From positions 7,216,234 through 7,280,233 of the forward strand of contig OZ316894.1 of assembly GCA_973895155.1 (NCBI GenBank): a stretch of 64,000 bases of DNA, read 5' to 3'. The notes under the pieces are model-generated. The model was not told the DNA's origin and did not search any database. It saw nothing but the letters and a program-made list of their open reading frames with translations. The position numbers were made by a program, and so were the translations under genes. Shown here one piece after another: positions 9,292-41,833 of the stretch (position 1 is its first letter; each line of letters opens with the position of its first letter). The stretch comes from Marsupella aquatica. Lineage: Eukaryota; Plantae; Marchantiophyta.

Positions 9292-10312
9292 TATTGGGTG
9301 CCAAAACTATCTCCTTGTACCTGAGGATCACGGAGGGATGTTGTGAAGGCTGGTATACACCGGTTTATCCCCTTAACGTTAGACTATCATAGCAAGACTC
9401 TGTCACACATCACCCAAGCTCAATCCCAAAGGACTAAGGTTGGGAATCAGCTCTTGCACTCATGATAGTTCTGGTGAGAAGGGGTCTTCATGTCGGGCCC
9501 GTACACACAGGGCCTAGCACTAGTACATTTTAGGGCCATTTACCGATATTTACACCATCGGACGCCTTCGGGAAAATGCGACGCCATTTTTGAGGTTTCC
9601 GATTCTAACTGCATCGCTCCGTCTGATACTCCCAGAATCGGATATGGACCATCGGACCTGTTTCAGACCACCCGATACCAATACTATCGGACATTGCATA
9701 TCTCCTGCAATCGGATACATTAGGTGTCCGATGTCACAAGAGCCGGAAGAAGCCTCTCCTTGCACTAGGTGAAGATCTATCGTCCGACAGTTGTCCGTAT
9801 GAACTTGCAAGGGATATTGCGTTAAAATTCCCATTGGGCATTGCGATGGTGGAATAAACGGATGTTCCGATAGTTTTGGTATGGGAATTTGACATATAAT
9901 TGGTATCGGAACATACGAAACGGAGGGATTCGGAAGCAATGGAGGGGTGCGATAGGAGAAGTATCGGAAGATTACTCGGGAAAGACCTAGCTTCATTGCA
10001 ACATTTGGTTTCTTGTGGGGATTTTTTCTGTTGGGGTTGAGGGTGGTTCTTGGGGGAATTTATGCAATACAACATAGAGGGATTTGTTGAAGATGTTGAA
10101 GAGGTTATTTGAAAGACAATGCCAATAGAAGTAATTAACACAAGAAGGATATATGGCCACAAAGGGTACTCAAACTCCAAAAGGGAAACATACCCCAAAA
10201 TGTACAAGAGTGATCCAAGTACTAGGATCACAAAAGTAAGCACATCCAACTCCTAATCTCGTCTAAGTCTAAGGCTACACAGTATGTCTCTATCTATCTA
10301 AGCTAGTCTAAG

Positions 10313-13300
10313 TCAAAATGGAGCATGTCGTCCCTTCCTCTTTTTGGAACGAGTCCCAGGTGGTGGGGGTACAATACTAGTCTGGGCAGGAGCCTGGGTG
10401 AATGGGGACTCGTCCATGGTGACTTGGTCCACAACATCTGGCCCCTGTGTAGAGGTCATAGGAGGCACTGGACCCATGGGCCCTAAGCGTTACTAATACA
10501 GGGAGGACGTGCGAACATCGCAAGGGTATTTTTAATGTAATGCAAACTAATTTTTATAATAGTTTTTAAAGTAGGCAACATCCTTGTATATATTCAGCAT
10601 AATATTAGTAATAAGGCTCTTATCAAATACATGTCACATTAATCTTATGCAAGGGTACCCAAAATGCCAAGTACACGCGTCACTATATGGTTGGCACACA
10701 TGTCATCACTTCACTTGCACACATGTTCATATAGTAAATCAGACATTTAATTATTTGTCGTCATAAGGCAAGTTTGGTTTCGTGGGCTTTAGGAACACTG
10801 AGAGGATAGTGCAGCCATGCTTGTCTGTATACTACAGGAAGAACTATAATTCTCTGGTACTAATTTTGTTTAACTATATAAAATATGTACCCTAAACAAA
10901 GGGCGTAACATACAAGTCCCCTATGCAAAATAAAGTCTTATCTATTTCAGTATGATATTTGCAATTTTAAAAATTCAAGGATGTTTTCAATTCCTTGAAA
11001 AACTATATTATAATTTATAAAAGGATAAAATTTAATAGGAAAAGTTAATATTTTTACATTAACAAGGGGATTTTTTTTGTGAACAAAAATATTAAGAAGG
11101 GGTACATGGGGGTGTCTGTTCTCAGGGGGGTTCACTTTATATAGTAAGAGTGAGGGCCCAGGGCACTGGACCCACGCCACCACCACCACCACCACCACCA
11201 CCATGTGACGCTAGGGAGTCATGGGAAGGTCCGCTCCCCCCACTTGCATGGCAAGTATGAAAGGAAGCTGCACCACCCCCACTAGCCCCGTTGCCAACGG
11301 ACTGCCGTGATGTACCACCCCCGCTCCCTCCTGAATGGCCAAGGGCAATATGAGCACCCCCAGTCTGGGCTGAAGGGTGAGAGACACCAACTCCACCGGC
11401 TGTACTCCCTCCTAACTGGCCAGGGGCAGGTCGACGACCCCCAGTGCGGCCTGAGTGGTGAGAGACAACACCGACACTACCTCTACTCCCTCTACTCCCT
11501 CCTGACTGACCCTGAGCACTAACATCGCCCCCAATGTGGCCTGAGTGGTGAGACACACCACCGACACTAGCTCTACTCCCTCCTGACTGACCAGGAGCAG
11601 TAACATCGCCCCCAATGTGGCGTGAGTGGGGAGAGACACCAGCAACACCACCACTCCCTCCTGACTAGCCAGGGGCCCTAACACCACCCCTTGTCAAGCC
11701 TGAGTGACGAGAACCTCCTGAGCCACCCCCATCTGCACCAGAGTGCTGTGAGCCTCTAGAACACCCTTCCCCATGAGGCTCTAATCGGCCAGACTCACCA
11801 ACAGCATGTCGCTCATCTCGCGACACATGCCGAGTGCCTCGAATATCAGCTCTGCCACTAGCCCGTGACTGGCGTCGGGGACCCTCACCACCTGTGCCAA
11901 CAGCCCGTGAGTCACGTCTGCCACTAGATCCAACCCCTATGGCTCTAGCTAGGCTGGTGAGGGGTCCCACTAGCACCACCCCTACTGGTCCTAGTATGTG
12001 TCACACGAACATCCGCTATAGGGCCACGACGGGTCGACTGAAGAGCCCTAGCACTACCCCTAACTGTATCGGACCGGTGAGGAGGGGGTATGGCCACAAT
12101 CCCCTCCTCTGGGTCCGATGACTCTGAATCAGATTCGCCGGATCCCCCACTGCTATGCCCTGAGCCCTCGTCCGCCGAGTCCTCACCCTCCGATCCCTCC
12201 TTGTCTAAGCCCTGCATATATCCAACCAACCACCCAAATTAGTATACGCTTTTTAGAAATAAATTTCAACACCCAATTAAGACATTGCATTAAAAATAAT
12301 CTCCTTACTGAACCCAGCTCCTCCTTCAAGTGAATCCGAAGAGCCCGTGGTCCTTGTTTCTTAGCCAACTCCCTCTCTTTTGGCAATATTGGTCGCCCAT
12401 GCTCGCGCTCCTGCCCCCCTCAAAAAATGCACCGGCAACCAAATTAGTCCCAATTAGTGCCACCGGGTCACACCCCAATTAGATCCACACTGGATCACCC
12501 CCAACATGTTTTAAAATGGTCAATGGAACCAACCACGATAATCCACAAGGGTAACCGTCAAAAATTTTGAAAATTCAAACTGTCCGATTACTTTCTGATT
12601 GTTTGTCCGATAGCATCAAGGTCGGATTGGAATCGGACACGACGTCCAAAAAAGCCATAGCAGTATTTCCGACTGTCCTTCCGATTCTATTACTATCGGA
12701 CCATAATCGGAAATAGGGCCCCGACAAAAAAAGATGGAGTTATCGATCGCATGCATAGTGCGCTTGCAGGGCCCGCACGGCTTGACAATAAGAGGGGACT
12801 TTGGGCCGGGGCTCTTCAGGCAAAGAAGGGCCTCAGGTGATCAGGTGAATGGAGGGAAGAGCTTGGAGAGAGGAGGTGGAGTCTACTTACAAATTCTGCC
12901 TTGAGACGCAGCGACCCGCCCTGCCCCATTCTGTGAGTGACTACTGGCCTGTTCTCAACTCAAATCAATGCCTTTTGCATATGTGAGGGAGGGTCCCCAA
13001 GCTGAATTGACTTTGCATCCCAATGTTGCAGGTTTTGATCAGCATGGCGGGTGTCAATAGTCTCCCCTGCCTGGGCCCTCACTGCAAGGACTTCTAGCTT
13101 AGCTTGCCAGTATCTCCTTGCCTGCCAGGCTCGAACCTGCAGCTCGGTCTCAATCCAAGCTGGCCATACCTCCACAGGAATATCATTTGGGCACCCTCTT
13201 TGCCTGATCACCTCCTCACTGTCCTTGCACTCACCAAGGTACTTCCTTAGCTTCTCCCTGATGTGATTCCTTCTGTCTGCAAGGGATAGACTGATTTTCT

Positions 13301-14033
13301 TGTTTAAGAACCTGTCATCAATGAATGAGCCATTGCAAAAACGTTCCTTCACCTGCTCACAAACTGTGAACTTCTCTTCTTCCTTTTTCTTCCCCCAGCA
13401 ATCTAACACTCCAAAATGGGATCTAAGTACTTGCCCAAGCTGACTCCTGAAAAGATTATAGCTCTTGGCCCTCGGAGCTCCTCCCTCATTCAAATAAATT
13501 TTTGGCCTCTTGCTTCTCTCCTCTGCTCGCAGCTTCTCCTCCTCCGCTCTTTTCCTATCTGCAGCCCGTGCCTCTCTACATAAGGCCTTCTCTCTCTCTC
13601 GTGGTGAGAGGGCCTCCACAGGTACAATCTCCTTCTCCTCCCTTCTCTTCCTCTTCTCTTTCTCCCTAGTACGCTGCCTCTCCTCAAATGTTTTCTGAGC
13701 TTCAACAAGAACAGTGCTCCTAGAAGAGTCTAGCAATCCTTGTGTCAATGCAGCCACCTTTTGCGCATGCTCTATGGAGAGCCCTACCTGCTTATGGAAA
13801 ATTGCAGCCATGATCTCCCCAAAGTCTTCTGATGGCCCTGCTCCATCCCCAGTAGCTCCTCCAGCCCCACCTTGTCCGGCTCTTGACCCTCCATCTCCAC
13901 CATCTCCTTGCCCTCCAGCTGTTCCTCCAAATCCTATTCCTGTCCCTGCTCCTGCCCCTCCCCCAGCCCCTCCATCGCTCCCCTCCATAGCCATTTGCTC
14001 TTCGCTGCCGTGAGCCACGCGCTTATTTTTCAC
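10313..14033 (-). pseudogene. CACTA accessory (TnpA/ORF2-like) multi-exon gene with Gly/Ser/His-rich repetitive C-terminal region
   Basis: ORF 12960..14033 continues (frameshift) to VTHRMGQGG..LKAEF|GTAAG. Exon near 12300-12400 ERELAKKQGPRALRIHL. Gly/Ser-rich exon 11140-12230. Last exon ends KKRKGRHAPF* at 10313. Homologues at 43928-46024 and 62723-63730. Confidence 0.65.
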
Positions 14034-14901
14034 AAAGACATGAACTCCCGACTGTTTTTTGATGCAAAGCCCGACTCAAGTGCGTTTGCACTTAGGTCGA
14101 GTGCCCTAAAAATGCTTCCGACTACTCATCCGATTCTATTTACATCGCAAATTCCCATTAAAACTGTATCGGAGATTGTATCGGATGAACATCGGACCCC
14201 TCCTGCGAAGCACTAACCTAAGGCTCTTCCGATATAGAGAACATGGTAAATGAAGTTGGTCTTTCTTTGGATGACACTACGTTGGTTCTATGTGTTGGCC
14301 AGGGGTTCTACGGATAGGGCGGACCATCGGAGCCGTGGTATCCCGAGTCACATGCATGATTTTGGAGGTGGTTGGTATGTATAAGGGTTGCGGGTTATTG
14401 TTAAAGGTTACTCCAAATTTTTAGGGTGGCATTTAATTTGGAGTGCCAAATACAATTTGACCTAGCTAACCTTATGCATCTTGCATTCGGAATTTTGCAG
14501 TTCCTTTTTGCGGAGGGTTAGGTTATTGCGATTATTTTGGGTCCATTTTTGCAATGCATCATGCACAGTGAGAGCCCGCACATCTGAAAGGTATTACCAC
14601 CTCTACAATGTGAGCTATATTTACTATGAAGCATTACCTATAATTACTATGAATTTATTGATATTGGTGTACCCCAATTAAGCTCAAGTGTACTTGTGCA
14701 GCAATTTCAGATTTGTCTTAGAATATAATCTACTAAAGGCCAAGATCCTAGTCGGCACTGCAAAGCGCGGGTCTCATTCAGGTATTATTGATATGAAGAC
14801 ATCTATATGTTTTTTTTGCCTTCATATTTATTGCATTGGTCTTACATATTTAATTCCCACAATGGCACATAAAAGGTTATTTTTGTATGGGTGATGGACA
14901 G

Positions 14902-15135
14902 ATGTCTTCTTCCGAGAGTTCAGAGTCGGATTCTGACTCAACCTCTTCATCTTCTGAGGGGGACATTCCTCCCCCCCCCCCTCCAAGGCTTCAATGTCCT
15001 CCTCCTCTAGGACCTATTCCATGTTGGTGTGTCCGATGTAAAGGCATGGTGGTTCGTCAAGCCTGGGAAGCCATTGAGCATATTGAGAACTATGGCAGAC
15101 ACGAGGGCAATTTACCAGGATATTCTACTCGCGAG
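14902..15135 (+). CDS. First coding exon of the CACTA-1 transposase/SET unit (Ser-rich, CxCxxC...H zinc-finger-like)
   Basis: MSSSESSES...PCWCVRCKG...HIENYG, followed by donor GAG|GTATGC at 15135/15136. Homologous exon at 41834..42047. Confidence 0.65.
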
Positions 15136-15233
15136 GTATGCACAATTAATTGCTCTTGGAGACATTGACATGTACAATTTGCCACATTGCACCCATACAT
15201 TTATTAATTGTTGGTTTTTTTGTGATTGAATAG

Positions 15234-16153
15234 GTGCCTTGTAGGACCCCTCCTCCATTGGTCTCTAATGACTTATGGGTAAATACGCTTTTGGCTGGTG
15301 CAAGAGAGTTGCTTGCATCATCATCAGCTCCCTCTCCATCTAGCCCCCCCGTGTTCAGCCAGAGAGTGTAGCAGTTCCATCTAGGGTTGGACGCACCTGA
15401 GCACGTTCCCAGAGACAACGTCGCCGTTATGAACCCTTGCCAGGCACTCATGAGATTGAGGAGCAAGTTGTAGACCGTACTCTTAGAGTGCCACCAGGAG
15501 AGGACTATGTGGAAGTGGAAGGGAGGTTGGGGTTGTCATATGTCACCGGGAAGGCATTGACAGTGTTGAAGGATTTCTTGTCTGATAGATTCAAAATACC
15601 CCCTGGCCTAACCACTGATACCCCTATCCACATATGGGGTCACCAATGGATAGTGAAGGCGTCTTCCCTTGGCCCTGACATAGGATTTGGGGTGTTTGCC
15701 TTGGAGGACATTGTGGTCCCGCCCAAGCCGTGGCCCCGAGGTTATGATGGTGAGCACCTATTTCCATACATTGGTCCTGTGTATACTTCAAAAGGTTGGA
15801 ACATTCTATTGCGCCAACACCCATCGTGGGGTGTCTATGCATTGCAAATGGATTCTGATCCAGATGAGCTCATACGGAGGCCTTGGCATTCTCGGATGAT
15901 TGATGGCGACCCTGTTCACTCCGATAATATAGCTGGGTACATCAATAGTACTCGTGGTAGAGGGAGAGGACTTAGGCCTAATTATGTAGAGTGGATTCAG
16001 ATATTTGGTCCACCTAGAGAGCCTTACTATGTAAAACATATGGATGATCATGTCATGACTGTAGCCATTACAACCATTAGGGCTGGCCAGGAGTTGTTTT
16101 GTGACTATGAGTGGGATAGGCCCAAGAAAGCATTGCTTTCTCGCCCCATGTAG
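15234..16153 (+). pseudogene. SET-domain (protein lysine methyltransferase-like) exon
   Basis: GFGVFALEDI, PYIGPVY, IDGD...NIAGYINST and IRAGQELFCDY motifs in ORF 15437..16153. Acceptor AATAG|G at 15233/15234. A stop and a frameshift lie upstream of the domain. Confidence 0.85.
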
Positions 16154-16367
16154 GGCAGACATATATGTATATATACCACCTTTTTGTTTAACATAAAATA
16201 CATGATACAGGTTTTCAAACTAAATTGGTTAGTTGTGTAAGTCAATCTTTGATCAAGGTTTGAAAGTATACTAGTAGAATGTGTAAAGAGAATTGTCTAT
16301 ACCTTTAAACACTTGTCTCATTGCATGTGGCCCTTCTAATATAATATGTATGTTTGTGAAATGTTAG

Positions 16368-18609
16368 AATGCATATGTTCAACCAGATATGGGGGTATTA
16401 TCACCAGCAATGCGGCAACACCTTGTTGAGGCCATGGGTGATTGGCGTAGGGCTCAAGCATCAGAGAATGAAGATGCCCCTCCTGAGCATGTGTCTAATG
16501 CCACCGAAGATAGACTTGAGGAGGAGAGGGCAATGGATGATCTTATGCACCAGTTCTATGACGTGGAGGATGGTGACCATGATATGGGTGATGCATTTCA
16601 TACCAATGCACATCCTCATGGTGACAATCCTTCACAAGGTTCTTCCTCTAGACAATGGGAGGAAGCTCGTGACCATGCGCAAACATGAAGTTTTGAGGGG
16701 TCACAACTATCTCGGCTCTCAGGAATAATGTTATTGTTGAACTTGCAGCAAAGACATGGAGCAAGCTAAGCAATCTCCTTCTTGATGATCTCTTCAGGAC
16801 CTTGCATAGTCATATTTTGCCAGAAGGGAACTGCTTGCCTAGTTCATGGAAAGCGGAAAAAAAGGTGTTGAAATCCATAGGCCTCAAATATGAAGTCATA
16901 CATGCTTGTGTGAATGGTTGTGTTCTGTTCAGGGGCGAACACAAAGATGCCACTACATGTCCTACATGTGACCAACCGAGGTATCGAGAGGACATGCTGA
17001 CTGGAAAAGTAGCACAGAAGGTCATGAGGTATTTTCCTCTTATCCCTAGATTACGGCACCAGTACCGATGTACAGAGTTGGCTGAGTATATGGTGTGGCA
17101 TTCCAAGAACCGGTCAGATATGAGTTCAGATCGGCCAACCATGCGTATGATGGTGGACTCACCTGCAAATAGGTTTGTGGAGGACCGATGGGGTGACTTC
17201 AAGACAGACCCACGTCATTTATGACTAAGTTTGGCATCAGATGGGATCAGCCCCTTTGCATTGGCCGGGAAGGCCCAACCATACTCAGTTTGGCCAGTAG
17301 TCCTTACAAATTACAACATCCCTCCATGGATGGCCATGAAGAAAGGTCATTTGCTGCTCTCAATGATTATCCCAGGCCCCAAGCAAGTAAAAAAGATTGA
17401 TGTTTACTTGGAACCATTGTTGGAGGAGCTTCAACAACTATGGAGGGGAGTGGATTGCTATGATGGTCGAGTGCTGACGGGTGGTTTACCTCATGAATTT
17501 AAATTAAAAGCCATCGTTATGTGGACCATACATGATCTTCCTGGTATGTTAAAATATACCTTCCCCAATATTATGCATGGTTTTTTAAGGTAGATAATAC
17601 ACTATAGGATAATGTTATATATAAAAGTTTGCCTGGCTATTGTTTAATGTATTGATTGTGTGTGTTGTAGGGTTTGGATATATCTTTAGGTTGCAGACAT
17701 CAGGATACCAAGCCTGCCCAACTTGTGGTCCTGATTTGGAGGGAGTGGCACGCCCTAAGTCTACCACCCTACGGAAGATAGTTTACATTGGTCACACAAA
17801 GTATCTCCCCCCAGAGCATGAATGGAGCCGTGACCCATTCTTATATGACACGGATGATGGCCAACCAGACACACGCCCTCAACCAGTGCCAAGGGATCCA
17901 CGCTATTGGAAGGAGGTATGGGATAGAGTGACAGACCCAGATGATCCCTTACCATTGGCCCGGTGTGGCATGACTCGTTTGTCTGCATTAATGTCAAAGC
18001 TGCCATATTGGGCTGAGATGCCAATTAACCATTTGTTTGACCCTATGCATATTGAGGGGAACGTTGGGAGGTCATTGATTCGCCATCTATATGGAGAGAA
18101 AGACAACAACTGGAGAGAGAGTTGTGAGGAGATGGGGATGCATGGTCCTCATGGTTTTTGGCCATCTATGGATCCCCCTAATGGCCCCCTTACTATTCAC
18201 CCTCCTTGGGTATTGACCAGAGGTGAGCGGATTGAGTTCCGCAATCGTATAGGGTCAATGAGGTTTCCTACGGGCTACGGGGCCAATCTGCGCAAGGCAT
18301 TTGGGGGACCAGACTGTCCACGTTGGCGAGCTTTCTTGAAGACCCATGATTACCATCGTCTACTACAACATGTCATTCCAGTGGCCATCATTGGATTGGG
18401 TAGTGAGGATCTTCATGATGCCCTATGGTCATTAGGTAAGCTCTTGAGGTGGGTGTGTCAAAAAGAGGTGAATGAGGATGAGATTGCAGCTATGGACCTG
18501 TTTGGAGTGGAGGTATTGTGCAAGTTGGAGAGGGCACTCCCTCCTTCATTCTTTGATGGCCAAGTTCACTTCCTCCTACACCTAGTGCGTGAGGTTGGCA
18601 TTGCAGGGC
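16368..18609 (+). pseudogene. CACTA TnpD/Tnp2-type transposase, 5' part (Transposase_21 + DUF4218-like)
   Basis: IHACVNGCVLF, ASDGISPF, SVWPVVLTNYNIPPW, WTIHDLP, DPMHIEGNV, LKTHDYH, PPSFFD. Intron 17544-17670. Several stops. Interrupted at 18610. Confidence 0.93.
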
Positions 18610-19398
18610 TGTGGTGCGTCCCATGGCTCCCTAAACCCAAGAAACCCCCCAGCTCAAGCCGATTCCCGCAGGTTTCGCGCTTGGCGAGGCCGTTTCCGCG
18701 GCTTAGCGGCATGGGACGCTGCTAACCTCCTCCTACTCTTACTATTAGCCTTTTACCCACATATACTGGACAGATCCTTCATCGGGTCATGAGATACGTA
18801 GCCGGCCTAATCTAGGCCTTCCCTTGTCTTCCTCTCCTTCTGGTTAGGTATGTTTGGATTCCGCCGCCGGAATGATCCCCAATAGGCTTGGTTAAGCCGC
18901 TAAGACCTCTCTCAGCTCGACACATCCAACTCTCACTCCCTTGTTTACTTTCCTTCCTTCTGGTAGATGTGGGCACTCTTCACACAAGTTAATGCGACAC
19001 ACAAATAGCAAAATGACTCCTTCTGACTGAGTCATACCATGCACTTGCCATACAAACAGTACATCTCATACACAAGTTCTGCGAACTGAGCCGTGAGGCC
19101 AACTCTATTCAGCTCTTAGGCATGAGGAAACATGAATATACACAAGGTCACGGTATGACTAACCGAGAGCTTCTCTTACTACTTGATCCCAGCCCGGCTG
19201 GTGCAACTAAAAACTTGCTAAAGAAGAGGCCCTGAGCTCCCCGCTGCCCAGGTACTTATCCTGGTAGTGGATCCGCCTAATTCTTTGCAGCATAAGCCTA
19301 ATCTACCTAACAGTAATCTACTTGCCCGAAACTACCTATGTACAGCAAGGCAGGAGCACAAGTGTTGCTCCTACCAGTGGAACCGCAATCCCACTAAG

Positions 19399-20948
19399 CT
19401 AAGTGTCAGGGCCGCTCCTGGTCCTGATCCTAATCCTAAACTTGGAGATCAGCGCCCGCCCTGCCCACTCACGCCTCCTACCTCCACGTCCGCCTTTCCT
19501 AATAGGAACGGCGCCCTTGCACCGCCACGACACCGGTGGTGGATCCTCAATGGACGCCCCCAATGCTTCCTCCGCAACCACTGCCGTTGGTCCATCCTCT
19601 GACAGATTACCTGCCTCTGACCGAGTCAACTTTTCGGCATGACTGGGCCCACCCTCGGCTTCGGCATCGGATCGGGAATCATTCTCGGCTACGGCCTCAG
19701 CCTCAGCCTCGGCTTTAGCCACTGTCTCCCTGGCCTGCTCAAGAGGTGGATCTGGGATACCGGCCTCATTATTGAGTAGTTTGGCTTGGGCCGCGCCATC
19801 CCCACCTTTGGTGATAGCGGAATCTATTGCCGTGCTCATGCCGGAGGTTGGTGCTGGGTCTACCTCCTTGGTCACCACGGCCAGTGGAGTCGTATTACTC
19901 CTTGACCCTGAAGGTTTCCGCTTCTTCTTCTTTTCTGGTTCGGCAACTGGTCCCTTCCCCTTCCCACTTACTTCCGTCACTGGTGCAGGTGGCGCGGCTT
20001 GTTCTTCGGCCAGTACCACTCCTGGTAACTTGGTTGCCCCAATTGGAGTTGGGCCTGATGAAGACAAGCACTTAAATACTGCGGCTTGTTTCTTCAACCG
20101 CTCTGTTTGGTTGTCGGCCCACCGCTGTAGGTTCTCCATCTTCCTCGTGAGTTCCTCCAACTCCTCCTGGGTCTCATCCAGGTCCCTGCGCGCCTCCTCT
20201 AGTTCCTTCTGGGCTTCCTCCCGTTCCCTGTGGGATTCCTCCAGTTCTTTCTTCAAGGTAGCCCTCTCCTCCCATGTTGCTCTTAGCTCCTTGTCGAGCT
20301 CCGCTACGACCTCAGACTCATGTTATTCATCTTGGCATAAGTCTGGTCGAGCTGGGCGTCCTTCTCCCGCAGGTCGGCCTTGAAGCTGGCCGTCAGGGAC
20401 GCAAGCTCCTGCTGTAGCGCAATAATCCCTTGATAGGATTTCCCTAACTCGGCCTCCTTCTACTCAAGGACTCCGTGGATTTTCTCGAGCTCCCCCTTCA
20501 ATGCCCTCTCCCTTCTCTGAGTCTCCGCCGTGACCCGGTTGTTGACTGCTATATGGGCCTCTTCTGCGTTTCTCAGCTCCTTCCATTTCTCCCTGTCCTT
20601 GATTGCGTCGGCCAATTCTCCCTGGGTCTGAGTCAGTTTATCCTTGATAATCTGATTATCAGCCTGCGCTATGTCCAACTGCCCCTGTATGATGTTCAGC
20701 TCATGCCACTTAATCCTCAGTTCATCTTGGGCTTTCTTGGCCGCCTTTAGATCTTCAATCTTGGCTTCCATCCTCCTAAGCCGCCGGATGACCTTGTCCT
20801 TCTTGCTTCTCTCTAAAGCCACCGCTTCTTCTAATTGGTTCTTCTCCAACTGCTCCCTATGGAAAAAGGGTCCTACCTCCAACTCCTCCCCAAAGATGCC
20901 GAGCGCAAGTTCCCCACACATCTCACCATACTCCATGGCTCTATTCTT
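19399..20948 (-). pseudogene. Unit A long ORF, C-terminal coiled-coil and acidic part
   Basis: ORFs 20460..20936 and 19399..20256 are E/K/L heptad-rich and homologous to 57771..59521. Confidence 0.7.
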
Positions 20949-22335
20949 TGTGGTATGGGTGTCCCTGCAATTTTTTCTGGAAACTTGTTTATTTTTAGCA
21001 TATCACAAGATTTACTTACACTTTAGACACCTTCCGGCCAACATTTACTTGTTCTGGACACTTATAGAAATATTTGACATCTCCGGCTTTCCTGACGATT
21101 CCTAGTGTACTTTGCCCGACGCTGTGACCAGCGCCCGTTTCTTTTACTCAAGACGCTGCGGAAGCGTCCAACCTCCTCATGACGCTTTTGGCAGTGCCCG
21201 ACCGCCACCAAGACTCTATGAGGATTTCGACCGACGCTGTGGAAAGCGTCAGCTTCAACACACGACGCTGTGAGCAGCGTCCACCCTAGTATTGACGCTG
21301 TGAGCAGTGTGAGCAGCGTCCGTTGGTTTTACTTAAGACGCTTCTAGCAGCGTCCAGATTCTCCCGACGCTTCTAGCAGCGTCCGCTCAACACTTAGTTT
21401 TTGAAGTAGATTACTAGTAAAGTAGTATTCTACCACCCTTGTTGAAGTACTTATGCTGTGCTTCTCCCTTGTTTAGTTTTAAGCTTGGAAAGGCACGACT
21501 GTTCTTACCTCCTCCATTTTAGGATTCCAGCACTTATAAGACAGAGTAGAATGCTCATTTGAAGTAGAGAGAAATAGAGTTAATACTGTATTCAGAATTG
21601 AGTCTTCTGAATAGTTTTCTCCTCCTTCCATTGTAACAAGGCATGCTGTGAGTGTTTTGTATGGAAGTAAAGCTATATTGATTGAAGTTAAGATTGAATT
21701 CAAGAGATTCCTGTGGTGATTGAATTCAGTTGCAGATTTCTGAAACTCGTATTGAATTCACTGCTAGGCTTGCTTGCAGAGTCGGGATTCGCTAGCCAAT
21801 TCAAGAATAGTTAATGATAAATGAGAAGTAAATTCTGATTCTCAGAGTAGTTAGTACTGTTGCTTTGATTCTGGAATATGGTTTAGAGTTTGACTGAATT
21901 GCGTATCGCTGATGTCAAACCATGTTGACGGCATTTTAAATCATATCATTCATTTGCAATCAGAAAGCTTCTGCTTCATCAGATTGAGAATTCCATTATC
22001 ATTAACCTTTGTGTTTTGAAGAGTGAGATGGATGAATTATGAGATAGATTTCATGTCTATACTGAGCCCAAATCCTTTCTGAAGGAGTGGCAGTAGCTTG
22101 TAGTCTCTAAATCCTTACTCATTTCTTCTCTAATTCATAAATCAGAAGTTCAGTTACTTTGTTGTTTGTTTATTCGATTTTTTTATTGAGAAGTGAAGTC
22201 AACATAGAGCTCAAGACTCTAAATCACTCGGAGTGATAAAAGTTATACAATTCATTCTGAAATCTGTTCTTAAAGGGATCGAAACCCTGGTTTTAGGTGA
22301 GGAGAGTCACTTTTGATACTTAGCACTATACGACA
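20949..22335 (+). repeat. 5' LTR
   Basis: TGTGGTATGG...ACTATACGACA, near-identical to 26500-27886. Confidence 0.97.
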
Positions 22336-22341
22336 TCTTTT

Positions 22342-22359
22342 TGGCGCCGCTGCCGGGGA
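22342..22359 (+). promoter_or_regulatory. Primer-binding site, Athila-type (tRNA-Asp-like)
   Basis: TGGCGCCGCTGCCGGGGA, 6 nt after the 5' LTR. Confidence 0.85.
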
Positions 22360-23553
22360 ACGAATTTAAGATTGAATTGACGTACAGGCAGTGTATGCCA
22401 GAAGGAGCTAGACGGGAGAGGAATTCACGTTCTACTATAATTGTGAAGATGCGTCATCACTCCAGTTAAAAAGATGAAGAGCTTCCATTTCGAGGTGATG
22501 CCGTACTCTATCCAAAGCGCCCCGGAAGCTCTCTTAAGAGTATTGGAAAAATTTGTGGTGCCAAACTTAAGAGAAGAAACCGCCCTCCCACCAGAAAAGG
22601 CCTCACAGAGAGGAGCTGTTGCTCGTCAAGTTGCTTTGGAGATAGTCGAAGACACCAAAGACACTTTGAGTGACAAGTGAAGTTATTCTAACGTTGCTCG
22701 GGACGTATGATTTGTAAAATTGTCCAACCATCCTGGTTCGTGTGACCGATGCCACCTATCCGATCTTTGGGAACATTAAGAATTAGGAATTTGAGGAATC
22801 GTTATGTTAATTCTTGGGTTCTGAGCCTGAGAGGGAGGAATGGCATACATTGGTTAACTATCACCTGGTGGGAAGATGAAAGTTTGCATTTAGTAATATT
22901 AAGGCTGAATGGTAGGATCACACAGGAGTGATATTTAGTCATTTCCATTCGGGAGTTAGCGGAAAGAATCATGCACCAGGAATTGCGTAGAAGATTAGGA
23001 AGGAGTTAGATGTCTGATTAGTAGGATGGCCTAGTGTAGCGTACCATGTGGTAAAGAAATTTCAGGGTGAAGGAAGTCGGAGATTATGGGGAACGCCCGG
23101 TTCCAGTAATCGCCACCGTAAAGGAGATAAGGAAGGACGCCGCGAAGAGCGTCCAATGCGATTCGTCCCAGAAGATTCCGCAAGTCAGGACGCTTCGAGT
23201 AGCGTCCGATCCCAGTGGACGCTGTGAGCAGCGTCCGGTGGAATCTGTGACGAACCAACGTGCGCGACGCTTCTGGTGTGCCTTTCCGCGTCTCAACCTG
23301 AAGGACGCACCAGAGAAAACGAGGTTTTAGAATCTCGGCTGGTCACTGAAGGGAAGTATTAGCTACGGGATAGCAAGGGGGAGGAATCATGCAAGGGATG
23401 TTGAACGACGCTACGGGAAGTCACTTTGAGGAAGCAGGTTCATATCTCCCGGAGTGGGGTGATAACGTCGCACCTAAATGATGACTCCTTGCATAAAGAC
23501 TCCTGAGGAGCGGGTCTGGTGTCTCAAAATCACCCGTGCTTGGAGAATGAGGG

Positions 23554-25029
23554 ATGTCTGAGGGAGATCCACCGAATAAAAGAAAACCTACCAAGACCTC
23601 CAGTAATTCGGATGCTGCAAAATTAGTAGTGACCCCTCGCACATTGTTACCCGAATTCCAGTCACCAGGAGCACCTGCACCGGGTAGTGTGTGGAAACAA
23701 GTGGGATCTATTCAAGAGGCAAGTGGCTCTTTGGAAAGGCCCACGTCGACCCGACCCCTGTTTGTAAATCTTCGTTCAGGTCCAAAACTTATTGGTTCTC
23801 AAAAGACCAAGCTCCGCCAGCAGACAGTACGTTCGGTGAACCAAATTGACTCTGGTGTGGATAGTACCACTGAGAGGGCCTTATCTCATACCGAAGGAAG
23901 AAATTTGGGTTTGCCCGAGAATACAGTTGCAGAATCGCTGGCCCAAGATAATTCTGTCGATCTTTCACAATTGGATAATCCAGAACCACTGAGTGAAGCC
24001 GGTGGTTCGTCTTCTAGTGAGACAAGCAGCAGTTCAGGCTTGGGCAGCCCAAACCCATTTGCTACCCGATCAGCTCTTCCTTTCGTTACCCTCCTAGCTC
24101 CAACCACGATGGCTCGAAATAATGTGAGGTACGACCGGTTCTTCGGTACTTCCAAGGAGGATGCAGAGGTGTATTTGAAAGAATTTGAAGCTGCAGCTGC
24201 ATCCAATGGACAGAGTCAAGACGCTGAAAAAGCCAATCTGTTTGGTGGTCTAATGAAAAAGGGTGCTCAGAAATGGTATGACCGTTTTCCGGACAAGCAG
24301 GATTGGGGGAAATTGAAGGCTGCTTTCTTGGCCAAATATAAAGAAGAAGGAGCAGCTGCGCGTGCCTTTGCCCGAATCTCACATCTGCACATGAAGAAAC
24401 ATGGGTCTGTGAGGAAATATGCCGACAAATTATTGGATTTGGTAGATCAATATAATCCAGCTACCTCGAAATCTACTATCAAGGACTGGTTTATTAACGG
24501 TTTACCCTCCAGGATTGCTCGTTACGTGAGACGAGAAGGTGGCACCACTTTGGAAGAAGTACAAGAGGCAGCCCAGAAGTACGTAGACTCGGAGATTTCA
24601 GAGAGAAAACGAGTTAAGAAGGACCTGAAGAAAGACAAAAGAAAGAAGAAGAAAACGTCCAGGTCTAAATCTGACTCGGAGACGGAATCAAGTGGAAGTA
24701 GCACTAGTGAGGAGGACGAGAGTACAAATTCGAGCACTAGTGATAGTTCAAGCTCAAGTTCCGACTCAGAATCCGTTGCTCCTAAAAAGAAGAAATCCTC
24801 TGTAAAAGGGAATAATAAAGTTCCCAACCAGAAGAAGATGGATCGCATGATGGAAGAACTCTCTGGCCAATTGTCCAAGTTGAATGTCAATATCGCCGCG
24901 GTAAAACCAGTACGAAGGTTGCCTGCTCCCATGAGAATGAACGTATGGTGCACCCGATGCAGTCAGCAGGGACACCCATACCACATGGAAACGGTTGCGC
25001 CATGCTATCAGTCGACAGATCTTTCCTGA
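23554..25029 (+). CDS. gag: Retrotransposon Gag-like protein
   Basis: F.G...EDAE.YL..FE, A.KWY, W..LK..FL.KY and F.NGLP capsid-like motifs. Partial zinc knuckle CTRCSQQGH. Confidence 0.85.
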   Translation: MSEGDPPNKRKPTKTSSNSDAAKLVVTPRTLLPEFQSPGAPAPGSVWKQVGSIQEASGSLERPTSTRPLFVNLRSGPKLIGSQKTKLRQQTVRSVNQIDSGVDSTTERALSHTEGRNLGLPENTVAESLAQDNSVDLSQLDNPEPLSEAGGSSSSETSSSSGLGSPNPFATRSALPFVTLLAPTTMARNNVRYDRFFGTSKEDAEVYLKEFEAAAASNGQSQDAEKANLFGGLMKKGAQKWYDRFPDKQDWGKLKAAFLAKYKEEGAAARAFARISHLHMKKHGSVRKYADKLLDLVDQYNPATSKSTIKDWFINGLPSRIARYVRREGGTTLEEVQEAAQKYVDSEISERKRVKKDLKKDKRKKKKTSRSKSDSETESSGSSTSEEDESTNSSTSDSSSSSSDSESVAPKKKKSSVKGNNKVPNQKKMDRMMEELSGQLSKLNVNIAAVKPVRRLPAPMRMNVWCTRCSQQGHPYHMETVAPCYQSTDLS

Positions 25030-25933
25030 AGCATCTTCCCAGGATTTTGAACAGGGAGAAGCACCTATCGGAACAGACGAGCTACCCCTTCCTGTACTTT
25101 TGACAGATCGAACTAACCAGGAAGTCTCTTTACCTAGCGATAATTTTAAAGAAGAACTTCCTGTTTTAGTACCAATGCATCCCATTGCAGATCAACCAGC
25201 TACTGTTGCAAGAGAAGAATTTGAACCACTGGAGCCCGAACCTTCTGCTCCTTCGTCTCCTGTTACATTGCCAATTCGACCAGTTAAGGAGTCAGTGATT
25301 CCTTCCGCTATGCCAGATGTAATTTTCCGTTGGATAGGAGCACCAAGTGATGGAGAAGAAGACGAAGACCCTCGCATTATCAGAGTACCTCCTCGACTTC
25401 GGCATACAGTGGATTTGCCACCCCGAAATCCTATCCCTAATTTGGCTTCAATTCACAGGTGGGAGAAGAAACATTTTCGAGTAGCTTTTCGACATCTGGA
25501 GATGGAGAGCATTTTGCAGCAGCAGCAGATTTTGCCAATGACATCCCATCCGAGGATTCGTAGTTTGATTCGCACATATGAACCTGGGAAGGCGGTTCCT
25601 CCCATTGATAAGGACAGACGACATAAGTTTTCGGAGTTCGAAATTTGGTGTTGGGTGTATATGCTTCGACGAGCTCAAGCTCCATTTCCGCCCCTTGTGC
25701 CGGAAATTCCATGGCCCTATCCATACTATGTTTGGGTTTGTCCTGGTGGGTTTGCTATTCCAATTAAATATGAGAAGAAGCTTGTTAAGCTAAGGGAGCA
25801 GTTGATTACAAAACAATGTATGCTACCGGCTTCCCAAGGGTTCAAGTCGCTTAGGTGTTTAGCGTTCCTACCTATTATTCCTTCTTATCCGGATGTGATT
25901 ATTCAAGGTGTTTTATCTAGGACACAGATTTGA
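24995..25933 (+). CDS. Unknown Pro-rich ORF between gag and protease
   Basis: 312-aa open frame overlapping the end of gag. No motif recognised. Confidence 0.45.
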   Translation: MRHAISRQIFPEASSQDFEQGEAPIGTDELPLPVLLTDRTNQEVSLPSDNFKEELPVLVPMHPIADQPATVAREEFEPLEPEPSAPSSPVTLPIRPVKESVIPSAMPDVIFRWIGAPSDGEEDEDPRIIRVPPRLRHTVDLPPRNPIPNLASIHRWEKKHFRVAFRHLEMESILQQQQILPMTSHPRIRSLIRTYEPGKAVPPIDKDRRHKFSEFEIWCWVYMLRRAQAPFPPLVPEIPWPYPYYVWVCPGGFAIPIKYEKKLVKLREQLITKQCMLPASQGFKSLRCLAFLPIIPSYPDVIIQGVLSRTQI

Positions 25934-25945
25934 AGGACACCATTT

Positions 25946-26422
25946 ATGAGAGATATCAAACGGTGTTGTCATTTATATGTATATAAGCCGTTACTTTTGC
26001 AGCATCCTGCAATTGTTTCCTTCTTTCTCCTTCGAATTGATATTTATCTGCTCATGTGGGACATCAAAGCTACTATGGATTGTTGGAATTCTTTACCCCG
26101 TGCTTTCCAACATTCCTTTGAAGGCAAGATCAAACTGGGAGGACATGCTATTCAACACTTTGTTATTGATCCAGGCTCTCGAATTAATTTCCTCTCCCAC
26201 AGACTGTGCCAGCAATTTGTTCATCAAGAAGTACAACCGATATCTGCTCAGATATCAATCGATGGACGAATCATTAATCTTTGGGGAAGAGTTAAAGGAG
26301 TCCCAATACAGATCGGAGAAGAATTCCATGACCTCGATTTTTATATTCTGGATTCGGATATCTCCCAACTCCCGTCAATGATTTTGAGCACTACTTGGAT
26401 TATTAAGCCAGAATATTATTAA
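25946..26422 (+). CDS. Retropepsin-like aspartic protease (probably degenerate)
   Basis: VIDPGSRINFLS...G.VKGVPIQIG...DFYILD...MILSTTWI. Confidence 0.7.
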   Translation: MRDIKRCCHLYVYKPLLLQHPAIVSFFLLRIDIYLLMWDIKATMDCWNSLPRAFQHSFEGKIKLGGHAIQHFVIDPGSRINFLSHRLCQQFVHQEVQPISAQISIDGRIINLWGRVKGVPIQIGEEFHDLDFYILDSDISQLPSMILSTTWIIKPEYY

Positions 26423-26486
26423 TGAAGAACATGTCACTCGCTTCTGATTCAATTCGGTCATGTCTTGTGGGGACACGGCGAAATTT

Positions 26487-26499
26487 AAGTGGAGGGCTA
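26487..26499 (+). promoter_or_regulatory. Polypurine tract
   Basis: AAGTGGAGGG immediately before the 3' LTR. Confidence 0.65.
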
Positions 26500-27886
26500 T
26501 GTGGTATGGGTGTCCCTGCAATTTTTTCTGGAAACTTGTTTATTTTTAGCATATCACAAGATTTACTTACACTTTAGACACCTTCCGGCCAACATTTACT
26601 TGTTCTGGACACTTATAGAAATATTTGACATCTCCGGCTTTCCTGACGATTCCTAGTGTACTTTGCCCGACGCTGTGACCAGCGCCCGTTTCTTTTACTC
26701 AAGACACTGCGGAAGCGTCCAACCTCCTCATGACGCTTTTGGCAGTGCCCGACCGCCACCAAGACTCTATGAGGATTTCGACCGACGCTGTGGAAAGCGT
26801 CAGCTTCAACACACGACGCTGTGAGCAGCGTCCACCCTAGTATTGACGCTGTGAGCAGTGTGAGCAGCGTCCGTTGGTTTTACTTAAGACGCTTCTAGCA
26901 GCGTCCAGATTCTCCCGACGCTTCTAGCAGCGTCCGCTCAACACTTAGTTTTTGAAGTAGATTACTAGTAAAGTAGTATTCTACCACCCTTGTTGAAGTA
27001 CTTATGCTGTGCTTCTCCCTTGTTTAGTTTTAAGCTTGGAAAGGCACGACTGTTCTTACCTCCTCCATTTTAGGATTCCAGCACTTATAAGACAGAGTAG
27101 AATGCTCATTTGAAGTAGAGAGAAATAGAGTTAATACTGTATTCAGAATTGAGTCTTCTGAATAGTTTTCTCCTCCTTCCATTGTAACAAGGCATGCTGT
27201 GAGTGTTTTGTATGGAAGTAAAGCTATATTGATTGAAGTTAAGATTGAATTCAAGAGATTCCTGTGGTGATTGAATTCAGTTGCAGATTTCTGAAACTCG
27301 TATTGAATTCACTGCTAGGCTTGCTTGCAGAGTCGGGATTCGCTAGCCAATTCAAGAATAGTTAATGATAAATGAGAAGTAAATTCTGATTCTCAGAGTA
27401 GTTAGTACTGTTGCTTTGATTCTGGAATATGGTTTAGAGTTTGACTGAATTGCGTATCGCTGATGTCAAACCATGTTGACGGCATTTTAAATCATATCAT
27501 TCATTTGCAATCAGAAAGCTTCTGCTTCATCAGATTGAGAATTCCATTATCATTAACCTTTGTGTTTTGAAGAGTGAGATGGATGAATTATGAGATAGAT
27601 TTCATGTCTATACTGAGCCCAAATCCTTTCTGAAGGAGTGGCAGTAGCTTGTAGTCTCTAAATCCTTACTCATTTCTTCTCTAATTCATAAATCAGAAGT
27701 TCAGTTACTTTGTTGTTTGTTTATTCGATTTTTTTATTGAGAAGTGAAGTCAACATAGAGCTCAAGACTCTAAATCACTCGGAGTGATAAAAGTTATACA
27801 ATTCATTCTGAAATCTGTTCTTAAAGGGATCGAAACCCTGGTTTTAGGTGAGGAGAGTCACTTTTGATACTTAGCACTATACGACA
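26500..27886 (+). repeat. 3' LTR
   Basis: Same length as the 5' LTR. One substitution noticed by eye (g at 21155 vs a at 26706). Confidence 0.97.
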
Positions 27887-27891
27887 TTCTT

Positions 27892-30096
27892 AGCGTAGGT
27901 GGAGTAAGTAGAAGTGATCGGCATCGCCCATCGCGGCCTCTGCTCTCAAGCCGTCTTGCGGATCTCTTCAATTGTGGCTAGAGGTTTGCTTCCTTTTTTG
28001 GCTAGCCGCCTGATGTCCTCCGGCCAATCTCCTCCTGGCAAATCCTTTTCCCTGGCCAGGGCTGCCTTCTCTTCCTGCCTGATTCGCTCCTGAAATTCCT
28101 GCGCCGTCTGTTTTATGCCGTCAAAGCTCGGGGGAGCAACATCTGGTGGGGGAGACTCAGGGCTACTCTGCTGGTTGGGGTCCCCTCATACTACCCTTGG
28201 AAGTGTGGGGATAAACCGGCCACAGGTCCTTACTCCTGGAACGTGATGGTCCGACCCATAGCCGGAGTTATCATGGCTGCAGTCCTCCACTGCCTCCTCT
28301 ACTTCTTGGACTTCCGGCTTCTCCCTCTCTTCTTCGTCGGTAGGAGCTTCAGGCAATTCTGCCTCAGATTCAGAGCTTGAGACTCCCACGTACATTCGAA
28401 CACCCGGCTTGGATTTTGGCCTGATTCTGCTTAGGTTGACCTCTGGGGCAATGTCCTGCATTGTTGCCGTTGCCGTTGTCGTTGCCGATGCCGATCTCTT
28501 CTCTTTCTCCAGTAGTTTCAGCAGATTCTGCATGCCTGGTTGCTACATCGGCAAGTCCTCCGTCCTTGGCCTAAACACCTGCTCAATCGTAGGGCTAACA
28601 GGTGGTTGAGGCTTCTCTGCTACTGGCCTCGGTGCTGGGGCTTCCTCGGGTGCCCTTACCTGTAGGGGAAGTACTGGGGCAAAGGTCTGACCTTTGGCAT
28701 ACCGGCACAACAGCGGCATGTGATAGTCAAGCCGCGACACGCTCCCCATGCCGATTACCTGCTGCTCCTCCTTTAAGATCTTCTTCAATTGGTTGAGGAG
28801 GTACCCATTGTAGTCCCGGCTTGGGTCTGGCTTCTCTGCCAGATAGACCTGTGCCTTGCCGATCTCTGCCCTCGGCAAGTTACAATGCATGGTCACCAGC
28901 AAGAAGTCGATCATCTCTCCTATGTGCAGGTTGGTGCAGGTGTTTCGGAAGAAGCCATTCTTCGTTGATGGCCCGGGGAACGACCGGAACTCCTTGTCAG
29001 GCAAGGTCTTCCTGGTATCAACTTTGGTCTTATTACCTATCGGCAAGCCAAACACTTCGGCAATCACCTTGGGAGTAAGATAGAAATCCTTCCCATATAT
29101 CCTCGTGCAATTGGTCTCGGGTTCCCATGACCCCACAAATTCTAATAGGTCTGAATCCGGTACCTCCGGCTTCAGCCATGGTAATCTTACAAAGGCCTCT
29201 AAGCCGGATCCGGCCATGAAGCCTTGGTACTTCTTGGTCTGCATGGCCGTAAAGCATGCATCCTCCTCCCGTGCAAAATGTAGTTGCACCTCCGCTGGTA
29301 GGGTTGCCGCCCAGCCCTTCCAGGTGTCATCCCTGGTTGGAATGGCATTGATGGGATCGTCCTCCTCCTCTTCGGTTTCTCCCTGCCTCCTGCTCTGCTG
29401 CTCGGCTGGCTTCCTTGGTGCCGCCGACCTCGTTCTTTTTGCCGGGGTGGCTTCATCATTGACGGCTCCCTTCCTCTTCATCTCTGCTGCCGTGGAGGTT
29501 TCTCCTAGCACCGTTGCCGGGGTCCACCTTTCCGTGCTACCCTTCAATTCCCAGTGTATGTCGTTGCAGTTCTTGATGGCCTCTCGAATGCCGATGATTT
29601 TGTCTTCACAAAACAGAAGATCGTCGAGCTGATTGGAAGTAGGAGTCCACAAGAACTCAGCGTTGATGAGTTTGCCTCCTAAGAAAGCCGTCTTCTGCAG
29701 CTCCCACAATCGAGCGAGCTCCTGTCGTTCTCGAGCTGCCCTTTCTGATTCTTTGTCCTTGTAAGTCTTGATGTACTCAGTTGCCCGTTCGAACAGGCAT
29801 CCCTAGAAATGTGCCGCTTGATTGACGTTGCTCATACCCTCCTTGAGTCGATCATTGGTATCTGTTCCCACCCCGCGTGCTTGCCTAAGCAGCTGACAGT
29901 AGTTGGCCTCCCGTAGTCGTCTGCCTAGTTCATGCTCGCAAATGAGCCACCATCTCCTGCAAGCGCTCCTTACCCCTCTCCTCTTCCTGTCCTTTCTCCC
30001 ATTGATCTTTCCTAGCCGCCGATGCTTAGCGCGCCCTAACCCTAATCTTGTTTTCACCCCCAGCGTCCTTACCTCCGGCCTCGGCCCAGGTTCCAT
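27892..30096 (-). pseudogene. Unit A long ORF, N-terminal part with a segment resembling plant retrotransposon extra-ORF / plant-mobile-domain proteins
   Basis: ORFs 29803..30096, 28543..29709 and 28186..28533 are in one frame, separated by stops. Contains GLEAFVRLPW...LLEFVGSW...IYGKDFYLTPKVIAEVFGLP. Homologous to 53520-55685. Confidence 0.65.
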
Positions 30097-30216
30097 AGTC
30101 GCCCCTAATTGTTTATATTTTCCTTGTTTTGTCCCTATTCTAAGGTGTTTCTAGGGTGCACTCCTGCTTTACCCACTTAACTGGCCGAGTGATTCCTGGC
30201 TAGGCATCACAAGGGC

Positions 30217-31238
30217 CGGTACATTGTCGTTGGATGTACTGGGTAGAGCGGTTTATGGGAGTGATGAAGTCATATGTGTCAAATCGTGTGAGAGTGGAAG
30301 GTAGCATCGCTGAGCGTCATCTTGGAGTAGAGAGCATGTTTTATTGTACAAACATTGTAGCTACACTTGATCCCAGTGCACCAAGGGGGTGGATAGACGC
30401 GCGAGGCATCAAGGGAAGCAGACTTTGAAGATGATCGTCTTACAGGGGCAAAGGGAGAACGAGTTTTGGGCTCAGCTGAGCACCTTCAAGTCACTACATT
30501 TATGTTGTATAACTTGCCTGAGATTGCGGGAGATTGGACAACTTTTTATGAGGAGGAAAAGGCAAATAGTCATTGGCCACGCATCTTCCCCAAGTTTGTC
30601 CCATACATGAGGGCAAAGTTTACCGAGATTGATGCCTTGTTGGAGCAAGGGGAGAGCGTGTCAGACTTCCCTTTGGTTACAAACAGCCTTCGCACCTTGG
30701 TTCATGGACCATTACTCACGGTGACAACTCGGACCGCCATGTGGTCAAAGGGAAGGCATTTTCGTGTGCAACGGCTTGATGATAAGAGGGCAGCTACACA
30801 GGATTGTGGGGTCATGGGTTGGTTCACCCAAGATTCACAAAGTAGCATATCTGATAGGAATCCAATACGCTCTACAGTGGCCCACTATGGCAAGATTGAA
30901 GAGATATTGACAGTGCATTATCATGCACACACCACTTTGGAGGAGGTGGTGTTGAAGTGCAAATGGTTTTGGATGAACCTTGTTGGCCATAACCAAACTT
31001 GCAAAGAGGATGCTTGTGGGTTCACACGGTTGAAGACGGTGCAAATAGTGTCATTAGCTCAACTTGGAGAACCTCTGATCCATTTGCATTCCCCCACCAT
31101 CTTGAGCAGGCCTTCTATCTTCCGTATCCCGATGATCCTGAGTGGTCCATTGTCATGACTTATATTCCACAATCACGATCCATCATCCAAGAGCGACCCA
31201 ATGTGGTTGTAGTTGAAGATTTGGACCCCGAGCCTTGA
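30217..31238 (+). pseudogene. CACTA-1 transposase, 3' part (DUF4218/DUF4216-like)
   Basis: PVHCRWMYWVERFMGVMKSYV.NR.RVEGSI, TQDCGV, YGKIEEI, LKCKWF, DPFAFPHHLEQAFY. Frameshifted. Confidence 0.9.
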
Positions 31239-40200: not shown

Positions 40201-40682
40201 AACACATTCTCCGAGGGTAACATCAAGTCATGACAATATTCAAATATGTCTGATAACATAGAATTGCTTGTCTTGTGTTTAGCTTGAATGTTCAAGAGCC
40301 CCAATATGGCAGAAAGACGGCTCAACCGAGCACCCTCAAAAATAGGTGTTCGAGCATGTTCCTCTGCCTCTTTCCATTGTTGTTGTCCCTCTGGAGTATG
40401 TTGTGGCCGTGGGTCATTTGAAGGGCCAACCTCATGACCAATGTGAGGCACATCATCCTCAACATCGGCACCAAACCAATCAACCATGAAGTCATCCATG
40501 GCTCTATCTTGATCATGCATGACCTGGTCATCAGTCCGAGGTGCGGCTTCCTCATCAGCACCACCTACATCATTACTTGATGAGGAATCACCCTCTGATG
40601 GTTCTCCCTCTTCTGGCATACCCATCTCCCGATATGTTGCTCTCAACCTTCGTGGTAACATTTGTTGAGATGGTTGCGCATT
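37286..40682 (-). pseudogene. CACTA TnpD/Tnp2-type transposase, nearly intact
   Basis: ORFs 39486..40661, 37939..39393, 37607..37819, 37286..37564. Predicted introns 39405-39505 and 37773-37942. One lesion near 37607. Confidence 0.95.
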
Positions 40683-40893
40683 CTATGCACATTACAACCA
40701 AAAAACCTCCTCATGTATATTTGACCAAGTACAACAAATTAAAATAGACTTAACACCATTCATTCAAGACATTAAGAATTAAAGTAAATGCATGGGCTAA
40801 AACCTTATTACTCCAAAATGAGCCCAAAGGCCATATATATAATAGTAAATGGGAAGTCCAAAATAGGTGCAAGAGGATAAAGGACATGATTTC

Positions 40894-41724: not shown

Positions 41725-41833
41725 CTATTCCATGCAAACACCCACAAACAACCAAATGTGTAAACCATGTGTAAACATTGATTCACCTCTAAAAATAACA
41801 GTAAAGAACGGCAATCAATTGAAACAAACTTAC

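Follow-up and report, generated by a model that had tools for sequence, protein, structure and literature searches.

Why does the transposase gene of a plant DNA transposon hold an exon for a SET domain, a predicted lysine methyltransferase fold, and could one gene serve both proteins? The question is raised by a stretch of 64,000 nucleotides from the liverwort Marsupella aquatica (GenBank assembly GCA_973895155.1, contig OZ316894.1, positions 7,216,234 to 7,280,233 of the forward strand), referred to here as the window, which contains two transposons of the CACTA type, E1 and E2. We found that in both a SET exon separates the first coding exon of the transposase from the second. Our reading, to which we give a probability of roughly 55%, is that they belong to a CACTA lineage with liverwort relatives in which this exon is conserved, and that one splice donor and two acceptors likely direct the gene toward either the transposase or a predicted methyltransferase composed of a zinc motif and the SET domain. 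Alternative splicing of the E1-type gene, as predicted from the DNA, is likely.

In E1 the gene lies on the plus strand. Its first coding exon (14902..15135, 234 nt) encodes a Ser-rich segment with a CxCxxC...HxxxxG motif (MSSSESS...CWCVRC...HIENYG) and a weak likeness to PF13963, and it ends at a phase-0 donor (GAG/GTATGC, the slash marking the junction). The predicted intron A that follows (15136..15233, 98 nt, 33% GC) ends in acceptor A at 15234 (TGAATAG/GTG), which opens the SET exon in phase 0 with VPCRTPPPLV; the in-frame codon right before that exon is TAG. The SET exon (15234..16153) has its own stop codon at 16151–16153, with the Pfam SET core at 15689–16108 and the catalytic Tyr codon at 16106–16108. 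An AT-rich spacer (16154..16367, 214 nt, 30% GC), predicted to hold both the 3′ end of the SET message and the end of the long intron, leads to acceptor B at 16368 (TGTTAG/AAT), where the transposase resumes in phase 0 with NAYVQPD. The GC content alternates along the gene, at 48–51% in the exons and 27–33% in the intervening parts, and acceptors A and B rank first and third by upstream U-richness among the 80 AG sites between 15171 and 16400.

The original prediction had placed one phase-0 donor (15135) opposite two acceptors (15234 and 16368), and a SET exon with its own stop at 16153 inside the transposase gene; the E1 sequence bears out both, and the Pfam SET match stands above its cut-off. 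Two of its details need amending. The SET exon does carry the two lesions it named, in the opposite order: the frameshift comes first, with one base missing near the C-run at 15344–15350, and the TGA at 15398–15400 follows. The TAG at 15369 in E1 is a consequence of this frameshift. The exon that begins at 16368, described as in frame with the transposase, is so only across a stop at 16686 and a frameshift near 16765–16775, and the matching exon of E2 is open for 398 codons. Just 3′ of the SET frameshift, at 15356–15359, a CAG follows a C-rich tract; splicing at it as a cryptic acceptor would bring SET back into frame, a speculative idea because plant acceptors are usually U-rich.

The layout is conserved beyond E1. 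E2 (35931..46811, minus strand, with the target-site duplication (TSD) AAT) has its parts in the same order: a first exon at 42047–41834 with an 11-nt deletion, a fully open SET exon at 41724–40894 whose product is 43% identical to that of E1, acceptor B at 40682, and a divergently oriented open reading frame (ORF), ORF2, at ~43900–44900. A metagenome scan yielded 35 related loci, 33 of which form one family. By tblastn, the post-SET exon or transposase follows in 19 of the 35, the first exon precedes the match in 16 and the divergent ORF in 10; among the remaining loci, most end close to the match, and three (L023, L033 and L034) run into other sequence. Splice sites were aligned for E2 together with 24 of these 35. 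Of the 19 rows that span the donor, 18 retain its GT, and 13 of 15 first exons are in phase 0; acceptor A is preserved in 22 of 24 rows, and acceptor B falls at the aligned column in 14 of 16, with locus L001 having an acceptor B of its own at the contig end. The SET stop sits at the same place in every row that could be scored (18/18), and 12 of 17 SET exons have an in-frame length, five of them fully open (E2, L001, L003, L007 and L009). Between E2 and the metagenome family, conservation of the splice flanks is 1.00 at the donor and 0.77–0.80 at acceptor A, against 0.47–0.48 in the intron interior, and 0.58 at acceptor B, against 0.38–0.40. Four element lineages thus retain a single phase-0 donor with two phase-0 acceptors, a shared-donor arrangement of the En/Spm type. 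Further upstream in E1, a candidate donor of a non-coding exon lies at 14770..14783 (plus strand), by motif match only; its 12-mer motif is found at two places 5′ of the first coding exon in E2, where a tandem duplication of ~470 nt in the 5′ region (42204–43214) repeats the predicted donor.

What would each product gain from the shared exon? Two family members match PF13963 with E values of 0.011 and 0.031, below the Pfam threshold. A profile of 36 related transposase N-termini matches nine of ten first-exon sequences at E < 0.01, a profile–profile comparison of the first exon with the same 36 N-termini gives 70% (E 4e-5), and in one related transposase (P0106) a PF13963-type domain stands directly at the N-terminus. 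Homology of the shared exon to PF13963, the N-terminal domain of the transposase itself, is thus weak but consistent, and it suggests that the transposase likely needs the far junction. In the SET exon of E1, motifs I and II precede the first in-frame AUG, and an in-frame TAG lies directly 5′ of the exon, so the SET product likely needs the near junction. Database proteins also join the first-exon type to SET (P0022 and the Riccia models P0027 and P0036).

Several observations weigh against the shared-exon splicing just described. With 33 of the 35 loci in one family, the independent lineages number only about four (E1, E2, the metagenome family and L001), and the spacer after the SET stop shows no conserved poly(A)-like hexamer. 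An AUG lies 4–6 codons after acceptor A in the E2-type families (E2, L001 and the metagenome family), and a Met lies ~8 codons after acceptor B in all families, so separate starts are possible. These AUGs favor a different arrangement, in which SET is a nested gene in a transposase intron with its own transcript and start codon, and the zinc-motif exon is used by the transposase only. We consider this unlikely: E1 lacks an AUG ahead of the catalytic motifs and has the TAG immediately 5′ of the exon, all lineages conserve the U-rich phase-0 acceptor A, and intron A measures only 98–118 nt. The joined database proteins, for their part, may be gene predictions, and three other Riccia models (P0050, P0055 and P0089) join SET to the transposase instead. 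Such models would fit a SETMAR-like SET–transposase fusion made through a donor within the SET exon or at its end. That product is very improbable, as the stop is conserved in all 18 rows, five E2-type sequences show no strong conserved phase-0 donor within their SET exons, and P0055 and P0089 truncate SET before the catalytic Tyr, as prediction artefacts would. No single reading frame appears to run from SET into the transposase, given the conserved stop and the lack of a conserved strong in-phase donor. No long SET fusion of any kind occurred among 3169 candidates, a weak search in which only proteins of 882–2515 aa were examined.

Contigs from four read sets bear on the history of the E1 lesions. 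A diverged subfamily carries the extra base near 15344–15350 in two of the four sets, and position 15398 is C in nearly all contigs, against the T of the E1 TGA. Also counting against the reading preferred here, near-identical contigs in all four sets have the SET frameshift of E1 (contig depth is not copy number), so this lineage may have survived with no functional SET in cis. The junctions 15135–15234 and 15135–16368, which the original prediction had proposed as a check in transcripts, have no match among the listed joints of the four contig sets; these contigs cover the introns and carry no evidence on expression.

Is the SET exon built as an enzyme? The frame 15401–16150 matches Pfam SET (PF00856) at E 5e-6, above the cut-off, and SET is the only domain found in the exon. 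A structural model of 220 aa, based on a 47-sequence alignment, has a pLDDT (predicted local distance difference test) of 89.8 and adopts a SET fold (Foldseek E 2e-6; Z 11.8, root mean square deviation 3.0, 127 aligned residues). The glycines of the GxG motif that binds S-adenosylmethionine (SAM) are present in 44 and 46 of the 47 sequences, the Glu of ELxxxY in 44 and the catalytic Tyr in 43. Motif III reads NIAGYINS, with N152 in 43/47 and S153 in 46/47. The SET exon thus encodes a predicted lysine methyltransferase fold with kept catalytic motifs. It is unlike small stand-alone SET enzymes in having neither ankyrins nor Cys-rich pre- or post-SET regions and in having a family-specific N-terminal extension.

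The enzymatic part of our reading meets difficulties of its own. Measured against RxxNHS, which we take to be the consensus of motif III, the canonical histidine is absent from all 47 sequences, and the tyrosine of YxG is Phe in 13 of 47 and Cys in 1 of 47. The top Z-scores (11.8–10.8) are tied among Set1, SETD8, EZH2, SET7/9 and PR domains, with no single class, or histone methyltransferase class, standing out. These features would suit a product that is spliced as predicted and acts as a non-catalytic or non-histone regulator, whose target for methylation or binding could for example be the transposase, ORF2 or a host silencing protein, with inclusion of the exon also throttling the transposase; the common N-terminus could compete with the transposase. 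We regard such a regulator as possible, at clearly less than even odds, because the SAM-binding glycines, the Asn and the catalytic Tyr are kept over deep divergence, and because of LegAS4. This protein (Legionella RomA/LegAS4) is the best sequence match in the PDB (E 2e-5), reads N-F-S without the histidine, likewise has an aliphatic residue two before the Tyr, and is reported as an H3K14 trimethylase in the available part of PMC10653858. The departures in the SET exon, therefore, need not abolish activity. Identity is low throughout, at only 14–26% to LegAS4, giant-virus SETs and SETD8.

Large DNA viruses supply both the nearest Atlas cluster and the top viral fold matches, which we treat as leads only. 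No close relatives by pattern were found in viral contigs (136 candidates), prokaryote genomes (39 candidates) or phage records, and NCBIfam and PHROGs gave scattered weak matches only, in at most 4 of 47 members. At 50% identity, 81 clusters match the SET family, and the named clusters among the 25 looked up come from the liverworts Riccia sorocarpa and Calypogeia fissa. Some of the "SET genes" in the annotations of these liverworts may be transposon exons. In a SET tree built without host outgroups the liverwort sequences are dispersed, which suggests an old and diverse family. A quick transposase tree of 61 of 69 candidates and four rows of our own places the six SET-linked rows in one group (support 89, unstarred); a single origin of the SET-linked transposases is possible on this tree. 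In a later transposase exon, four loci (L002, L015, L021 and L026) have an extra intron or insert of ~150 nt relative to L006 and E2, which marks a subfamily.

If the SET exon does something for the element, selection should be visible on it, and the original prediction had named neutral evolution across copies as the outcome that would count against it. The answer depends on the depth of the comparison. Among recent copies, the ratio of nonsynonymous to synonymous substitution rates (dN/dS) of the SET exon is 0.95 and looks neutral. An apparently stronger constraint on the transposase within the family (pooled dN/dS 0.56–0.58) disappeared once distinct changes were counted by methylation context (all p > 0.25), and both genes decay neutrally in recent copies, as expected for inserted copies. 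Between lineages, the dN/dS of the SET core is 0.24 (95% interval 0.15–0.37) for the family against E2 and 0.32 (0.21–0.52) for the family against L001, and none of 1000 bootstraps reached 1. The SET core is under purifying selection, visible only between lineages, so the expectation fails for recent copies and holds at the deeper level. The transposase has lower values between lineages (0.07–0.15), a further point against the reading preferred here, and synonymous sites approach saturation in comparisons that involve E1.

The neutral changes in recent copies and the frameshift of the E1 lineage would be expected if the exon were a gene fragment captured in the manner of Pack-CACTA and carried along neutrally. 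This explanation is barely credible. The between-lineage dN/dS far below 1 already disfavors it, the position and phase of the exon are identical in elements near synonymous saturation, and the SET family spans the 81 clusters, liverworts included. Two side results of these comparisons are recorded here. A "majority stop" as a common SET lesion was considered and dropped, as the commonest stop site reads TGA in 5 rows and CGA in 23. Synonymous divergence between E2 and the metagenome family is lower in the SET core (40897–41517; 0.61) than in the transposase (37943–40340; 0.84–1.44), which could reflect exonic splice signals or exchange between families.

We return to the splicing of one gene into two products, which can be set out as a series of steps of decreasing certainty. 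Use of the far acceptor would very probably yield a complete transposase that carries the Cys/His domain usual at its N-terminus. If the near acceptor is used and the message terminates within the AT-rich spacer, the product would probably be a zinc-finger–SET protein of ~340–385 aa. This predicted protein would, on balance, be an active methyltransferase, and it would probably add several methyl groups, given that mostly small or aliphatic residues stand two positions ahead of the catalytic Tyr. More tentatively, it may act on a histone in the chromatin of the element itself, leaving a mark that opposes silencing, and may do so in trans for sister copies. The fullest version of the idea holds that in an ancient bryophyte CACTA lineage a splice switch on the zinc-motif exon selects between the transposase and a self-encoded histone methyltransferase, perhaps of giant-virus or protist type, which marks cognate elements protectively; we consider it rather doubtful as a whole.

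A close precedent is Spm (maize En/Spm and Arabidopsis Spm3), which makes TnpA and TnpD by alternative splicing, the TnpA of Spm3 being anti-silencing, according to the available text of bioRxiv 10.64898/2026.08.24.746577. E1 resembles En/Spm in its CACTA ends, 3-bp TSD and Tnp2 transposase, and in a single gene predicted to give a transposase and a regulator. It differs in that the splice partner has a SET enzyme fold, not a transposase-derived DNA-binding domain, so the alternative product is not a DNA-binding regulator of the TnpA type, and in that splicing in E1 is a prediction from DNA. The likely TnpA- or ORF2-like gene of E1 is moreover separate and on the opposite strand (a weak assignment), and the parallel with TnpA/TnpD is an analogy only.

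SET capture by DNA transposons is already known. In the accessible part of bioRxiv 10.1101/2025.02.11.637652, the PAG2 gene of red-algal Plavaka elements (EnSpm superfamily) contains SET and is proposed to be a chromatin modifier, and Helitrons also have SET. Compared by that description only, PAG2 is like the E1 exon in being a SET carried by a DNA transposon of the EnSpm superfamily. It is described there as a separate gene in a three-gene cassette, with SET fused to an N6-adenine methylase, whereas the SET of E1 has no methylase partner and is an exon within a classical plant CACTA transposase gene. HarbingerS and oomycete MuDR elements likewise carry captured SET lysine-methyltransferase genes (Kojima and Jurka 2014, as cited in the available part of PMC12730594); they belong to other superfamilies and hosts, and nesting with a shared exon is not described in that part. 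VANC, a sequence-specific factor of MuDR (VANDAL) elements that induces hypomethylation (cited in the available parts of PMC12730594 and bioRxiv 10.1101/2025.02.11.637652), resembles the role proposed here for the E1 SET as a plant transposon accessory protein thought to counter silencing, and those parts describe no SET fold for it. The available text of PMC11982613 holds nothing on a SET exon in CACTA elements. Among the hits listed in our literature search, none deals with a plant CACTA transposase gene that contains a nested SET exon; such families might be present in Repbase or in the supplements of the red-algal preprint, both outside this search. We thus found no description in print of the nested, shared-exon layout in a plant CACTA element.

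In the available parts of these sources, the plant anti-silencing factors VANC and TnpA are described as sequence-specific regulators. If the proposed chromatin role is true, a land-plant transposon would encode a chromatin-writing enzyme, with the splice choice competing with its own transposase, which is a different design. In the fullest version of the idea, such an enzyme would amount to an anti-silencing writer that the transposon encodes for itself, tied by splicing to how much transposase it makes. It would also open to direct test a long-standing question, whether the SET genes captured by DNA transposons really write marks; mosses and liverworts can be transformed, and open SET exons exist.

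The element itself can be placed without difficulty. E1 (9518..31740, plus strand) is bounded by 14-bp terminal inverted repeats that begin CACTA at 9518 and end TAGTG at 31740, with the 3-bp TSD TAG at 9515–9517 and 31741–31743, and it is a genuine CACTA element by the features given for that superfamily in the available part of PMC4158355. Its transposase frames match Transposase_21 (PF02992, E 2e-32) and DUF4218 (PF13960) in Pfam, and the C(2)C and H(3–4)H motifs of Tnp2 transposases are visible as CPTC and HFLLH. The assignment of particular E1 residues as the D/D/E catalytic acids is our assumption. The transposase exons (acidic linker, PF02992, PF13960) occupy 16368..18609 on the plus strand, with a predicted intron at 17544–17670 and a stop at 17222 in addition to the lesions named above. 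At 18609 the gene is broken by an 11.6-kb insertion (18610..30211, strand not assigned) with TG...CA ends and the 5-bp TSD AGGGC, and it continues at 30212..31238 (plus strand) with frameshifts. Without this nested insertion E1 would measure ~10.6 kb. With its stops, frameshifts and insertion, E1 is not an autonomous copy and is a dead relic. The insertion itself contains a second long terminal repeat (LTR) element (20949–27886; TG...CA ends, 5-bp TSD) whose LTRs are 99.86% identical across 1391 nt, which points to a very recent origin, with a gag-like ORF at 23551–25029.

ORF2 of E1 (12960..14075, minus strand), possibly TnpA-like, lies head-to-head with the transposase gene and shares 29% identity with the matching ORF of E2. 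It has no Pfam match above the cut-off. An Atlas look-alike with PF03004, a TnpA-type family, scores only 0.88 and is a weak lead, and phmmer gave no match between ORF2 and PF03004-bearing proteins. Downstream of ORF2, inside E1 at 11137–11712 (minus strand), an array of ~81-nt repeats has a Gly/Ser/His-rich frame and is possibly a further ORF2 exon. Short motifs cluster at both ends of E1, where we looked for subterminal repeats.

Other CACTA-like sequences lie elsewhere in the window. A segment at 147–4894 has CACTA-like ends, with no matching 3-bp TSD for that pair, and long 27-nt tandem arrays (2728–2966 and 4083–4895). A 2-kb non-autonomous CACTA element at 55686–57652 has ends like those of E1 and the TSD AAG, and it sits in an inverted relative (53403–60377) of the element that interrupts E1.

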